Part shown: piece after piece, positions 21,214 through 36,557 of the stretch | Layout: each line of letters starts with the position of its first letter | Position numbering within the stretch: the first letter of the stretch is position 1 | IMG/VR virus record: IMGVR_UViG_2563366920_000001 | Length of the DNA: 36,963 nt | Origin: a virus | Taxonomy: Duplodnaviria > Heunggongvirae > Uroviricota > Caudoviricetes | Reading direction: 5' to 3' (one strand) | Made by a program: the position numbers and the translations under genes | The notes under the pieces: generated by a model | Seen by the model: the letters and a program-made list of their open reading frames with translations, nothing else | What the model was told of the DNA's origin: nothing | Database searches by the model: none

Positions 21214-21396
21214 ATGATCATGCTGATTCTCGCGCCTCTGGTGGGCGTGCTGGGGGCGCTTTTGCTGGCGTATGGTGCCTGGCTGATTTATCCCCCGGCG
21301 GGGGTTGTTGTTGCCGGGGCGTTGTGCCTGTTCTGGTCGTGGCTGGTGGCGCGATATCTCGACCGTACACAGTCGTCTGTCGGCGGAGGTAAATAG
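21214..21396 (+). CDS. Small hydrophobic protein (60 aa, two predicted TM segments)
   Basis: ATG at 21214 with GAGG Shine-Dalgarno. Stop overlaps the portal GTG start. Two hydrophobic stretches. Confidence 0.4.
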
Positions 21397-22637
21397 TGTT
21401 CTTTTCGGGATTATTTCAACGAAAAAGTGACGCACCGGTGACCACGCCAGCAGAGCTGGCGGATGCTATCGGGTTGTCCTACGACACCTATACCGGAAAG
21501 CAGATCAGCAGCCAGCGGGCCATGCGACTGACGGCGGTTTTTTCCTGCGTCAGGGTGCTGGCAGAGTCGGTCGGGATGTTGCCCTGCAATCTGTATCACC
21601 TGAACGGCAGCCTGAAACAGAGAGCCACCGGCGAGCGTCTGCATAAGCTGATCTCCACGCATCCCAATGGCTATATGACGCCGCAGGAGTTCTGGGAGCT
21701 GGTGGTCACCTGTCTGTGCCTGCGGGGAAACTTTTACGCCTACAAAGTGAAAGCATTTGGCGAAGTGGCTGAACTGCTGCCCGTCGATCCCGGCTGTGTG
21801 GTACCGAAGCTTAACAGTAGCTGGGAGCCGGTCTATCAGGTCACATTCCCGGACGGCTCCACGGATGTACTGAGCCAGGAGGATATCTGGCATGTGCGCA
21901 CGCTGACGCTGGACGGTCTGGTGGGGCTGAATCCCATCGCCTATGCCCGCGAGGCAATATCGCTGGCAGCTGCGACCGAAGAGCACGGGGCCAGACTGTT
22001 CAGCAATGGTGCGGTGACGTCCGGTGTGTTGCGTACAGAGCAGACGCTGTCGGATCAGGCTTATGAGCGCCTGAAGAAAGATTTTGAGGAGCGTCACACC
22101 GGGCTTGGCAATGCTCACCGCCCGATGATCCTTGAGATGGGGCTGGACTGGAAGTCGATGGCGCTGAACGCCGAGGACAGCCAGTTCCTGGAAACCCGCA
22201 AGTTTCAGCTTGAAGAAATCTGTCGTCTGTTCCGGGTGCCGTTGCACATGGTGCAGAACACCGATCGCGCCACCTTCAACAATATCGAAGAGCTGGGGCT
22301 GGGATTTATCAACTATTCACTGGTTCCGTATCTGACCCGCATCGAACAGCGGATCAACACCGGACTGGTACGAAAAAGTAAGCAGGGCGTTTATTACGCC
22401 AAATTTAACGCCGGGGCGTTACTGCGCGGGGATATGAAGTCCCGTTTTGAAGCCTACGCCACCGGGATCAACTGGGGAATTTACTCTCCCAATGACTGCC
22501 GCGACCTGGAAGATATGAATCCGCGTCCCGGTGGTGATGTCTATCTCACACCGATGAACATGACCACGAAACCCTCCGATGGCAGTAAAGCCGGTAAGCA
22601 GAAGGATAACGCCAATGCAGACGAAACAACGTCTTGA
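21396..22637 (+). CDS. Portal protein (HK97 family)
   Basis: GTG start at 21396 with GGAGG 7 nt upstream. 413 aa, follows terminase. Sequence character of HK97-family portals. Confidence 0.85.
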   Translation: MFFSGLFQRKSDAPVTTPAELADAIGLSYDTYTGKQISSQRAMRLTAVFSCVRVLAESVGMLPCNLYHLNGSLKQRATGERLHKLISTHPNGYMTPQEFWELVVTCLCLRGNFYAYKVKAFGEVAELLPVDPGCVVPKLNSSWEPVYQVTFPDGSTDVLSQEDIWHVRTLTLDGLVGLNPIAYAREAISLAAATEEHGARLFSNGAVTSGVLRTEQTLSDQAYERLKKDFEERHTGLGNAHRPMILEMGLDWKSMALNAEDSQFLETRKFQLEEICRLFRVPLHMVQNTDRATFNNIEELGLGFINYSLVPYLTRIEQRINTGLVRKSKQGVYYAKFNAGALLRGDMKSRFEAYATGINWGIYSPNDCRDLEDMNPRPGGDVYLTPMNMTTKPSDGSKAGKQKDNANADETTS

Positions 22638-23265
22638 TGTACCGCTGAGTCTGAAATCTGTCAGTGACTCCGGTGAGTTTGAAGGGTATGGCTCCGTCTT
22701 TGGTGTAAAGGACAGCCACGATGATGTGGTGATGTCCGGGGCATTTGCTGCTTCCCTGCGGGTGTGGAGTGACAGAAAAGCGTTACCTGCGCTGCTCTGG
22801 CAGCACCGCATGGATGAGCCCATCGGTGTTTACACTGAAATGAAGGAAGACGATGTCGGGCTTTACGTCAGGGGGCGGTTGCTCATTGATGATGATCCCC
22901 TGGCAAAACGCGCACATGCACACATGAAGGCCGGTTCGTTAACCGGCCTTTCTATTGGGTACGTCCTGAAGGACTGGGAATACGACCGGACGAAAGAAGC
23001 CTTTCTGCTGAAAGAAATCGACCTCTGGGAAGTCAGTCTGGTGACGTTCCCGTCTAACGACGAAGCGCGGATCAGCGACGTCAAGAACGCACTGGCCCGC
23101 GGGGAAATCCCCGAACAGAAAAAAATCGAAAGAGTCCTGCGTGATGTCGGACTCTCCCGTTCCCAGGCCAAAGCATTCATGGCCGGGGGCTATGGCGCAC
23201 TGTCCCTGCGCGACGCTGAGGATGTGGGCTCTGCACTGAATGCACTGAAAAATCTGAACTTCTAA
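22615..23265 (+). CDS. Prohead maturation protease (HK97-type, S78)
   Basis: ATG at 22615 with AAGGA upstream, overlapping the portal 3' end. Lies between portal and major capsid protein. Confidence 0.8.
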   Translation: MQTKQRLDVPLSLKSVSDSGEFEGYGSVFGVKDSHDDVVMSGAFAASLRVWSDRKALPALLWQHRMDEPIGVYTEMKEDDVGLYVRGRLLIDDDPLAKRAHAHMKAGSLTGLSIGYVLKDWEYDRTKEAFLLKEIDLWEVSLVTFPSNDEARISDVKNALARGEIPEQKKIERVLRDVGLSRSQAKAFMAGGYGALSLRDAEDVGSALNALKNLNF

Positions 23266-23279
23266 TCAGGAGAAATACG

Positions 23280-34283: not shown

Positions 34284-35328
34284 ATTTCAGCGCCCGACGC
34301 TGGCAGAAAATATCAGTATGCTCCGTAACGATTTATTCGCCAGGCTGGACGTCAGCGACACGCTCCGGCGCATGGATGAAGACGTGCGGGCAAAGGTGTA
34401 TGCGGCGGCGCTGCATACGGTTTACGGTTACATCGATTATCTGGCAATGAACATGCTGCCTGACCTGTGCGATGAGTCCTGGCTGGCGCGACATGCTGCG
34501 ATGAAACGGTGTCCGCGCAAGGGGGCCACGGCTGCCAGCGGGTATATGCGCTGGGAAGGTGTCAGCGATGGCCTGAAGGTGACCGCCGGGAGTGTTATTC
34601 AGCGCGATGACCTGGTGCAGTACACGGCAACTGCCGATGCAACCAGCACCGGTGGTGTCCTGCGCGTGCCGATCGCCTGCTCAAGTACAGGCGCGGTCGG
34701 TAATGCTGACGACGGTACGTCATTAATCCTGGTCACGCCGGTGAATGGTCTGCCGTCTTCTGGCGAGGCAGATACCCTGACAGGCGGATTTGATACTGAA
34801 GAGCTGGAAACGTGGCGCGCCCGCGTCATTGAGCGGTATTACTGGACGCCTCAGGGCGGGGCTGACGGGGACTATGTCGTCTGGGCTAAAGAAGTGCCCG
34901 GCATTACCCGCGCATGGACATACCGACACTGGATGGGAACGGGGACTGTCGGTGTGATGATTGCCGGCAGTGACCTGATTAATCCCATTCCGGAAGAATC
35001 AACGGAAACGGCGGCAAGACAACATATCGGGCCACTGGCCCCGGTGGCAGGCTCTGATTTGTATGTATTCAGGCCGGTGGCGCATAAAGTGGATTTTCAT
35101 ATCCGTGTGACGCCGGACACACCGGAAATACGGGCTGCCATCACCGCCGAGTTGCGTTCGTTCCTGCTGCGTGATGGTTATCCGCAGGGAGAACTGAAGG
35201 TGTCACGTATCAGTGAAGCGATTTCCGGTGCGAACGGGGAATACAGCCATCAGTTGCTTGCACCGGCGGACAATATCTCCATTGCAAAAAATGAACTGGC
35301 GGTACTGGGGACGATTTCATGGACGTGA
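34270..35328 (+). CDS. Baseplate J-like protein (Mu gp47-like)
   Basis: ATG at 34270. 352 aa, conserved position. Confidence 0.8.
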
Positions 35329-35903
35329 CAAACGATGATTACATCCGTCTGTTGTCGGCACTGTTGCCACCCGGTCCGGCGTGGTCAGCCAGAGATCCGG
35401 CGATTGCCGGTGCGGCACCGTCATTAACCCGCGTTCATCAGCGTGCGGATGCCCTGATGCGGGAGCTGGATCCGCGCACCACTACTGAACTGATAAACCG
35501 CTGGGAGCGTCTGTGCGGTCTGCCGGATGAATGTATTCCCGCAGGGACACAGACCCTTCGCCAGCGTCAGCAACGACTGGATGCGAAGGTTAACCTGGCG
35601 GGCGGCATCAATGAGGATTTTTACCTTGCACAGCTTGCTGCCCTGGGCAGACCAGACGCTACCATCACGCGATACGACAAAAGCACGTTCACCTGCTCAT
35701 CTGCCTGTACTGACGCGGTGAATGCGCCGGAATGGCGGTATTACTGGCAGGTCAACATGCCAGTCGCCACCAACACCACCTGGATGACATGTGGCGATCC
35801 CTGTGATTCCGCGCTGCGCTTCTGGGGGGACACCGTTGTCGAGTGTGTGCTTAACAAACTCTGCCCGTCGCATACCTATGTGATTTTTAAATATCCGGAG
35901 TAA
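35319..35903 (+). CDS. Tail protein (Mu gp48-like, DUF2313; YmfQ-like)
   Basis: ATG at 35319. 194 aa. Resembles e14 YmfQ-type tail proteins (recollection). Confidence 0.7.
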
Positions 35904-35906
35904 TCC

Positions 35907-36557
35907 ATGCATCGTATAGACACGAAAACCGCGCAGAAGGATAAGTTCGGCGCGGGTAAGAACGGTTTTACCCGTGGTAACCCCCAGACTGGCACGCCTG
36001 CCACCGATCTGGATGATGACTACTTTGACATGTTGCAGGAGGAGCTTTGCAGCGTGGTGGAGGCATCCGGTGCCAGCCTGGAGAAGGGGCGGCACGATCA
36101 GTTGCTTACCGCACTTCGCGCGCTGCTGTTAAGCCGCAAGAATCCGTTTGGCGATATCAAATCGGATGGCACGGTGAAAACGGCTCTCGAAAACCTTGGT
36201 TTGGGAGAAGCAGCTAAAAGGAATGTAGGTACAGGGGCGAATCAGATACCTGATATGAGCCTGTTCGCGTCAAGTAATACCGCAACGGCTGCTGCGCAAA
36301 AATTTCCGTCTGGATTAATTTTACAGTGCGGTCAGTTGAATGGCTCCCCTAATGTATCTTCAACATACGGGATGAGGTTCCCGATGACATTCTCAAGAGT
36401 CCTTGCTGTCACAGTTACATTGAACGTTACTGGCGCGTCAGGGCAGCCGACTGTATCGGCGACAAATGTCCATAACACTGGATTTGATATTACAGTGTCG
36501 CCCGGTTCAGGATATGGTTCATCTGCTGATGCGTATTACATTGCAATGGGATATTAA
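35907..36557 (+). CDS. Tail fibre protein (short, 216 aa) with conserved N-terminus and AT-rich variable C-terminus
   Basis: ATG at 35907 with GGAG. N-terminus [47 protein letters not shown] is the conserved fibre N-terminal domain. Composition switches to AT-rich after about codon 100. Confidence 0.7.
36184..36209. promoter_or_regulatory. Candidate DNA-invertase crossover site (hix/gix-like) inside the tail fibre gene
   Basis: CTCTCGAAAACCTTGGTTTGGGAGAA has the AAACC-NN-GGTTT core and left arm TCT(C/T)GAAAACC, similar to hixL TTCTTGAAAACCAAGGTTTTTGATAA as I recall it. Coincides with the GC-to-AT switch in the fibre gene. Confidence 0.4.

Follow-up and report, generated by a model that had tools for sequence, protein, structure and literature searches.

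An SfV/SfII/SfIV-type prophage at thrW that joins an HK97-type head to a Mu-type contractile tail in a lambdoid layout

We analyzed a stretch of viral DNA of 36,963 nucleotides (IMG/VR record IMGVR_UViG_2563366920_000001), which is referred to below as the window. We conclude with very high confidence that it is the left 36.9 kb of a temperate myovirus of about 41 kb, of the SfV/SfII/SfIV type, inserted at thrW beside proA in an E. coli-type chromosome. The initial annotation, made from the letters alone, had read it as an HK97-type head joined to a Mu-type contractile tail, with P22-type integration and lambda-type regulation, i.e., as an SfV-like phage. This was borne out by the nucleotide comparison with the type phages, with which the structural region is syntenic: positions 18400-36963 were 98.5% identical to Shigella phage SfIV (NC_022749 / KC814930) over 95% of their length, 97.6% identical to SfII and SfI, and 96.7% identical to SfV. 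In the early half of the window, 54-61% of the length could be aligned to SfV, SfIV, and SfII, at 96-97% identity. A 25-kb query was recovered to at least 80% in 85 complete E. coli genomes, and the RefSeq homologues bear the names ymfK/L/Q/R/T and yfdG/H/N/P-T, which we take to be those of K-12 genes of the cryptic prophages e14 and CPS-53. The prophage is an ordinary member of a well-studied family that comprises Shigella and E. coli prophages, and its architecture is already known. The combination of an HK97 head, a Mu tail, and a lambdoid layout is a textbook case of modular phage evolution, which was reportedly published for SfV in 2002-2003 and later for SfI, SfII, and SfIV. Recognition of the SfV family lets the whole window be labelled as a thrW prophage; it matters little beyond annotation.

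Every gene class named in the initial annotation was found on the + strand, with strong family matches (Pfam, NCBIfam). Each protein of the window was compared by tblastn with the genomes of Mu, HK97, P2, P22, and lambda. The head and packaging genes occupy positions 18415-25468, and the large terminase subunit, the portal, the protease, and the capsid protein matched HK97 gp2-gp5 at 26-35% amino acid identity, with no match in Mu. The NCBIfam equivalog models portal_HK97, proheadase_HK97, major_cap_HK97, and sm_term_P27 were all above their cut-offs. On the + strand, the set opens with an HNH endonuclease that accompanies the terminase (18415-18852; PF01844; 42% identical over 48 residues to the HNH protein at the end of the HK97 genome). 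It is followed by the terminase small subunit (TerS) of the P27 family (18969-19472; PF05119, TIGR01558), the terminase large subunit (TerL; 19469-21202; PF03354 and PF20441; 26% identical over 522 residues to HK97 gp2), and a small membrane protein of the YmfR family (21214-21396; phrog_502; homologue named ymfR in RefSeq). Then come the HK97-family portal (21396-22637; PF04860, E 4e-108; TIGR01537; 32% identical to HK97 gp3), the prohead serine protease S78 (22579-23265; PF04586 Peptidase_S78, E 3e-31; TIGR01543; 35% identical to HK97 gp4), and the major capsid protein (23280-24485). The capsid protein matched PF05065 Phage_capsid (E 4e-79) over residues 115-398 and TIGR01554 over residues 6-398. 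E, K, L, and Q abound in its first ~110 residues, which lack W and Y and are helical in composition, and no scaffold open reading frame (ORF) was found between the adjacent protease and capsid genes. A capsid with such an N-terminal delta (scaffolding) region and no separate scaffold gene is, as far as the sequence can tell, the delta-domain arrangement of HK97. The set is completed by a small conserved ORF (24535-24735; phrog_1020), a head-tail adaptor of the HK97 gp6 family (24738-25061; PF05135, also matched by HK97 gp6), and a head closure protein of the HK97 gp7 family (25058-25468; PF05521, also matched by HK97 gp7). The mosaic had been drawn from 21396 to 36557; the gene classes are indeed there, but the HNH and terminase genes (18415-21202) lie upstream of that start and the tail module runs past that end, to 36963.

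The tail genes (26515-35903) were found to be colinear with phage Mu from gp38 to gp48. Eight of the proteins matched Mu gp38, L, N, P, and gp45-48 in the Mu order, at 29-45% amino acid identity by tblastn, and nothing in HK97. All are encoded on the + strand: a DUF2635 protein of 56 amino acids homologous to Mu gp38 (26515-26685; PF10948; 42% identical); the contractile tail sheath, homologous to Mu gpL (26669-28165; three sheath Pfam domains, including PF04984; 36% identical over the full length); a Mu N-like protein (DNA circularisation/tail; 30858-32234; PF07157 DNA_circ_N; 43% identical to the N-terminus of Mu gp43); the baseplate hub, homologous to Mu P/gp44 (32231-33310; three GpP-like domains; 35% identical over the full length); the baseplate spike, homologous to Mu gp45 (33310-33858; PF06890 Phage_Mu_Gp45; 29%); and three further baseplate proteins, namely the wedge homologous to Mu gp46 (33855-34283; PF07409 GP46; 45%), the J-like homologue of Mu gp47 (34270-35328; PF04865 Baseplate_J; 30% over the full length), and the wedge homologous to Mu gp48 (35319-35903; PF10076 Phage_Mu_Gp48; 30%). 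The nearest structures also came from Mu: the sheath matched Protein Data Bank (PDB) entry 9KHY (E 1.5e-79), which is the Mu sheath and whose sequence appears also in entry 9KI1 alongside Mu gp44, and the hub matched the gp44 structure 1WRU (E 2e-50). The tail tube (28165-28521, +) had no tblastn match to Mu and reached the Mu tube in the PDB sequence search at E 0.67 only, but it shares PF10618 Tail_tube (E 2e-33) with Mu gpM, while P2 FII belongs to a different family. The tape-measure protein (28926-30833, +; PF10145 PhageMin_Tail) is 100% identical to that of SfIV, with no nucleotide match to SfII or SfV across 29.0-30.5 kb. No tblastn match in the window was found for the Mu transposase A/B, head proteins (gp29, I, T), gin, or S, nor for the tail genes of the siphovirus HK97 (major tail, H, J). 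The initial annotation had singled out failure of the tail proteins to match the Mu sheath and baseplate families as what would speak against it; Pfam, tblastn, and structures all place them in these families.

The tail assembly chaperone (28518-28933, +; PF10109 Phage_TAC_7), which had been described as frameshifted, is predicted to occur in a short form of about 107 residues that ends at 28841 and in a long form of about 138 residues produced by a -1 frameshift. A T TTT TTT heptamer stands in frame at 28769-28775, after codon 86, and is followed by a -1 ORF of 52 codons, which stops at 28933 and thus overlaps the first seven bases of the tape-measure gene. In the divergent chaperone allele of SfII and SfV, in ST64B, and at the annotated E/E' site of P2, the position is the same, and the heptamer and the length of the extension are similar. 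At the sequence level, the frameshift is real. The extension also resembles that of P2 E/E' in an F/W-x-x-NP-x-EL-like motif.

Between the head genes and the DUF2635 gene at 26515, which is the first gene clearly on the Mu side, lie two neck genes on the + strand. The first (25443-25949) encodes a neck or tail-completion protein of 168 amino acids, with a match to phrog_879 and none to Pfam; its allele is of the SfII/SfV type, 92-93% identical to SfII and SfV at the nucleotide level and only 60% identical to SfIV at the amino acid level. The second (25946-26506) encodes a tail terminator of 186 amino acids (PF23840, E 2e-26; sub-threshold match to PF09646 Gp37). Its position and size (182 amino acids for Mu gp37) are like those of Mu gp37, which is suggestive only. 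The PDB sequence search returned nothing for either protein. hhalign with shallow alignments against Mu, HK97, P2, and lambda also returned nothing for the neck proteins, but it was uninformative, as its positive control (the head closure protein against HK97 gp7) failed too, and single-sequence AlphaFold models of the two proteins (mean predicted local distance difference test scores of 37 and 39, respectively) were too poor for a fold search. The exact boundary between the head and tail modules is somewhere in the interval 25.4-26.5 kb.

The left end of the window carries the chromosomal junction. proA (aldehyde dehydrogenase family) is present from its start codon (1-1254) and is followed by the tRNA-Thr gene thrW (1369-1444, +; ARAGORN, Rfam) and by int. 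The tRNA gene was the only Rfam match over the window. Homology to SfV, SfII, and SfIV begins at about position 1399, where we place the junction between phage and chromosome; a 48-bp core repeat (1399-1446, +) represents attL. Over 1399-1454, 55 of the 56 bases match the attP region of P22, in a stretch that includes the annotated P22 core. The tyrosine integrase (1459-2622, -; PF00589) is 90% identical to P22 Int over 387 amino acids and 100% identical to SfIV Int, and the excisionase (2499-2933, -; HTH_17) is 86% identical to P22 Xis. The P22-type integration proposed at the outset is thus confirmed by the two proteins and by the attachment core, and the insertion at thrW beside proA is that of the SfV group. 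Both ends of the window coincide with gene limits, the ATG of proA on the left and the stop codon of the fibre-assembly gene on the right, which suggests that it was trimmed to whole genes and does not stop at a contig end.

Lambda-type regulation had also been proposed, and here the layout held while several of the proteins did not. A CI-type repressor, with a helix-turn-helix (HTH) domain and an S24 peptidase domain (5435-6109, -; PF00717; 40% identical to P22 C2, 35% to lambda CI), diverges from a Cro-like HTH protein (6200-6400, +; YdaS/HTH_3; homologue annotated cro in SfIV and SfV). These are followed by a CII-like protein of the CP76 family (PF06892), an O-like initiator (7340-8281; 31% identical to lambda O), a Q-type late antiterminator (13521-13913, +; PF06530, E 1e-52) that is not of the lambda Q family, and holin, endolysin, Rz, and Rz1 (16654-18083; endolysin 87% identical to lambda R), all in the lambda order. 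tblastn found no homologue of lambda N, P, or Q, or of P22 gp24, in the window, and no N-like Pfam match was found among the small ORFs left of cI. The early-left genes between the excisionase and cI are of the yfdP-T type, and the O-like initiator is followed by PerC-like, Dam, LexA-DBD-like, RusA, and KilA-N genes, then by an IS4-family insertion, DUF968, and Q. After the lysis genes, packaging, head, neck, tail, and fibre genes form an uninterrupted run on the + strand to 36963. Sigma-70-like promoters were not enriched across 17-37 kb (9 found versus 11.9 expected), which fits one late operon; from the layout, this operon, from the lysis genes to the tail fibre, would be placed under Q. 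A tblastn match of lambda CII to 1297-1425 (-) in a window-only search (43 residues, 37% identical, E 1e-4), which spans the proA-thrW spacer and the opposite strand of the tRNA gene, was judged to be a chance match.

The initial annotation had noted that the serotype-converting gtr cargo of such phages is missing from the window and, if present, would be at the unseen right end. tblastn indeed found no gtr or oac homologue in the window, and the second part is supported by proxy. Four public contigs (L007, L009, L010, and L013) match the final 11,057 bases of the window (25907-36963) at 100% identity. In all four, the next 5.5 kb (locus 11058-16597) encode on the opposite strand a 349-residue acyltransferase, a 486-residue Glucos_trans_II protein (gtrII-like), GtrB, and GtrA. 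GtrA was called in three of the four; in the fourth, L007, the DNA is 99.98% identical across the cargo segment. This segment is 98% identical at the nucleotide level to the acyltransferase-gtrII-gtrB-gtrA-att segment of SfII, without the ISSfl9 of the latter. It ends in attR, i.e., a repeat of the 48-bp core at 1399-1446, which recurs downstream of gtrA in L007, L009, and L010. SfII is the reported carrier of oacD (PMC8952252). Other relatives have, in the same place, gtrIV-like, DUF6056-type, or 506-residue third genes. We therefore predict that the DNA immediately to the right of the window carries a gtr cassette for serotype conversion, probably gtrII together with an OacD-like acetyltransferase; this prediction is relevant to O-antigen typing of the host strain. 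Past attR, the contigs continue into an island with a MarR regulator and the vat autotransporter, or into further integrases, i.e., tandem elements at thrW. On the chromosomal side, the proA-int segment of the window shows 99.9% identity to E. coli strain PM06121, in which a related prophage is followed by the MarR regulator and vat, as in L007 and L010.

Several observations weigh against a simple reading of the window as an HK97-type head on a Mu-type tail in a working prophage. The proteins of HK97 and Mu themselves share only 26-45% amino acid identity with those of the window, so that these labels hold at the family level. The capsid protein is closer to that of the Rhodobacter capsulatus gene transfer agent (RcGTA; 6TB9, E 5.5e-76), its nearest solved structure, than to HK97 gp5, which did not reach E 0.001 in the PDB sequence search; "HK97-like" is thus a family label. 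The chaperone is outside the Gp41_Mu family (PF23746), which Mu gp41 matches strongly, and matches only the broad PF10109; its frameshift is P2-like, and no X XXY YYZ heptamer turned up in Mu gp41 when it was scanned in the same way. By Pfam and PHROGs, the two neck proteins (25443-26506) are outside the families of Mu gp36/gp37 (no PF07030, no PF08873) and of HK97 gp10/gp11. This qualifies the Mu-like character put forward for the tail, as the chaperone and neck are outside Mu's own families. Furthermore, the right end of the prophage is outside the window, and an ISEc13 element upstream of Q could lower late expression, so that this copy is at most presumed to be active.

ISEc13, a member of the IS4 family of insertion sequences (IS), occupies 11059-12608, with IS50-like ends CTGTCTCTTGATCAGAT and CTGTCTCTTATACACAAAT and a transposase gene at 11070-12443 (-). 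It is flanked by an 8-bp target duplication, GTTTATGC. The element landed about 80 nucleotides downstream of the start of DUF968, a gene located between KilA-N and Q, and ORF 12460-13518 of the list joins IS and DUF968 sequence; no record of this fusion ORF was found. Expression of Q and of the late operon may suffer from a polar effect. This raises the alternative that the architecture is as described but that the copy is cryptic, non-inducible, because the element, which sits ahead of Q in the early-right operon and points the other way, blocks the late operon. The target duplication and the interrupted DUF968 gene, together with the relatives that lack the insertion, favour it. But none of the structural ORFs is disrupted, and they are 98-100% identical to their counterparts in functional phages, SfII and SfIV carry IS elements themselves and were nonetheless isolated, and read-through or an outward-facing IS promoter could still express Q. 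We consider it unlikely that the copy is cryptic.

The comparison with the type phages also disclosed shuffling of alleles within the family. The portal-protease-capsid block (21500-24500) is 98-99% identical to SfII and SfIV at the nucleotide level, with no DNA match to SfV; the first neck gene, of the SfII/SfV type, is 66% identical to SfIV at this level; and the chaperone and tape-measure alleles (28500-31000) are of the SfIV type only. A less likely reading is that this copy is an undescribed recombinant between members of the family. Tail and tape measure would be of the SfIV type, the neck gene of the SfII/SfV type, the methylase and lysis genes of the SfV type, and the oacD-like/gtrII cargo, to judge from the identical contigs, of the SfII type. 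On this reading, the copy sits beside the vat island of an E. coli chromosome, locked by ISEc13 upstream of Q as a cryptic element that modifies the O-antigen.

Such allele swaps might be taken to indicate that the head-tail join itself is a recent event, specific to this genome, in which an HK97-like siphovirus prophage recombined with a Mu-like element to give a new chimera. The swapped neck gene amid an SfIV-type tail, and the tape measure found in SfIV only, are local exchanges of the kind that this would involve, but the partners in these exchanges belong to a single family, not to different ones. Moreover, the same junction is found gene for gene in SfI, SfII, SfIV, SfV, ST64B, 118970_sal3, and phiP27, and alignments are contiguous across 25-27 kb (98.5% identity to SfIV, 78% to phiP27). 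phiP27 is 78% identical to the window at the nucleotide level across the junction, in head and tail, and the head blocks of ST64B and 118970_sal3 are 89-95% identical, with the same order of Mu-like tail genes. A recent, local origin is thus highly improbable. The presence of this junction in SfI, SfII, SfV, ST64B, and phiP27 indicates that heads of HK97 type were joined to Mu-type tails long ago, in an ancestor of a large family of enterobacterial phages, and that this genome inherited the combination, with no local event.

A reading of the Mu-like tail genes as a tailocin (R-type bacteriocin) in its own right, or as one remnant next to another that has only head genes, is equally improbable. 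Tail clusters of the SfV/Mu-like kind did become R-type syringacins in Pseudomonas (PMC4542187). Here, however, the head, neck, and tail genes are contiguous, often overlap, and share one strand; no att site, integrase, or regulator separates them; the head, packaging, and lysis genes are intact; and near-identical phages were isolated as plaque-forming myoviruses (PMC3851460).

On the preferred reading, that of an inherited SfV-type mosaic, the virion would be built by two independent assembly lines, one for the head and one for the tail, meeting at the neck proteins. In the head line, TerS, TerL, and the accessory HNH nuclease would carry out cos-type packaging through the HK97-family portal. 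The capsid protein would self-scaffold via its N-terminal delta region, which the S78 protease would be expected to remove, and the gp6-like and gp7-like connectors would close the head. In the tail line, the baseplate would be formed from the gp44-like hub, the gp45-like spike, the gp46/47/48-like wedge proteins, and the N-like protein. The chaperone pair, made by -1 ribosomal frameshifting, would hold the tape measure; the gpM-family tube and the gpL-like sheath would polymerise on the baseplate, and the tail terminator would cap the tail. The chimera would be viable because head and tail are built apart from each other and make contact only via a few neck proteins, and it was presumably fixed in the ancestor of a large enterobacterial phage family, to judge from what is known of this family. 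The structural genes of SfV are described in the literature as coming from two phage families (PMC4542187). Electron microscopy of SfIV, whose head proteins are termed HK97 family, showed an isometric head and a contractile tail; this phage resembles SfV, SfII, and SfI, for which electron microscopy is reported as well, and integrates at thrW (PMC3851460). By analogy with SfIV, the virion of the prophage in the window would have the same isometric head and contractile tail.

The remaining genes are at the end of the tail module and in the early region. The short tail fibre (35907-36557, +; PF21882 gp53-like C-terminus, phrog_1396) is not Mu S-like, no match to Mu S having been found. The tail fibre assembly protein (36466-36963, +; PF02413) is 51-56% identical in its C-terminus to Mu U, P2 G, and lambda Tfa. 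Its true start is likely near 36529, the RefSeq product of the relatives having 144 amino acids versus 165 for the ORF here; the 165-residue ORF had matches in just two short metagenome contigs. Two orphan methyltransferases are present in the prophage. The first, a Dam-type N6-adenine methyltransferase (8739-9425), is also found in SfII and SfV and is absent at that position in SfIV and E. coli MDK9L1. The second, an N6_N4 DNA methyltransferase (15621-16673; 99% identical at the nucleotide level to SfV orf48), lies in a variable cargo slot between Q and holin (13928-16673). This slot also contains a 339-residue ORF (13928-14947, -) that matched phrog_6191 only and nothing in Pfam, NCBIfam, or PADLOC, and a 75-residue ORF (15243-15470). 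The relatives have quite different cargo there (lipocalin, AAA ATPases, a nucleoid-associated protein). PADLOC, run on the cargo ORFs, reported only the two methyltransferases and, for the very widespread KilA-N protein, a weak match to PDC-S22 (E 1.6e-5).

Compared with known systems, the window shares with Mu (NC_000929) the homologues of gp38, L, M, N, P, and gp45-48, in the same order and with shared Pfam families. In contrast, the Mu transposase A/B, head, gin/G segment, and S fibre have no counterpart in the window, the chaperone and neck families differ, and the replication and integration of Mu are entirely different from those of this prophage. The only transposase in the window is that of ISEc13, so that the genome as a whole is not that of a Mu-like transposable phage. 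With HK97 (NC_002167), the window shares the families of TerL, portal, S78 protease, delta-domain capsid, gp6/gp7 connectors, and accessory HNH protein, in the same gene order. It differs in that identity is only 26-35% at the amino acid level and that its TerS is of the P27 type. The tail of HK97 itself is lambda-like and non-contractile, and none of its genes is in the window. Salmonella phage ST64B, 118970_sal3, and E. coli phage phiP27 have the same order of head, neck, and tail genes, but other integrases, tail fibres, and cargo (a type III secretion system effector in ST64B), and their tails are more divergent in DNA.

The closest systems are the serotype-converting phages themselves. 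SfV (NC_003444), the founding example of the HK97-head, Mu-tail, and lambdoid layout, is 97-99% identical to the window at the nucleotide level in the tail, int, lysis, and N6_N4 methylase genes. Its cargo is gtrV, and its portal-protease-capsid block has no nucleotide match to that of the window, though it too is of the HK97 family (PMC3851460). SfII (NC_021857) has the same architecture, with 97.6% nucleotide identity over 85%, but differs by another chaperone and tape-measure allele, another cI region, and insertions of ISSfl9 and IS911. SfIV differs in the first neck gene (25443-25949; only 60% amino acid identity), the Dam gene, the Q-to-holin cargo, and the lysis genes, and it carries gtrIV and other IS elements, while the copy in the window carries ISEc13. 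Its structural proteins from the tail terminator to the short fibre are nevertheless all 97-100% identical to those of the window, and it has the same Int, Xis, thrW attachment site, and cI.

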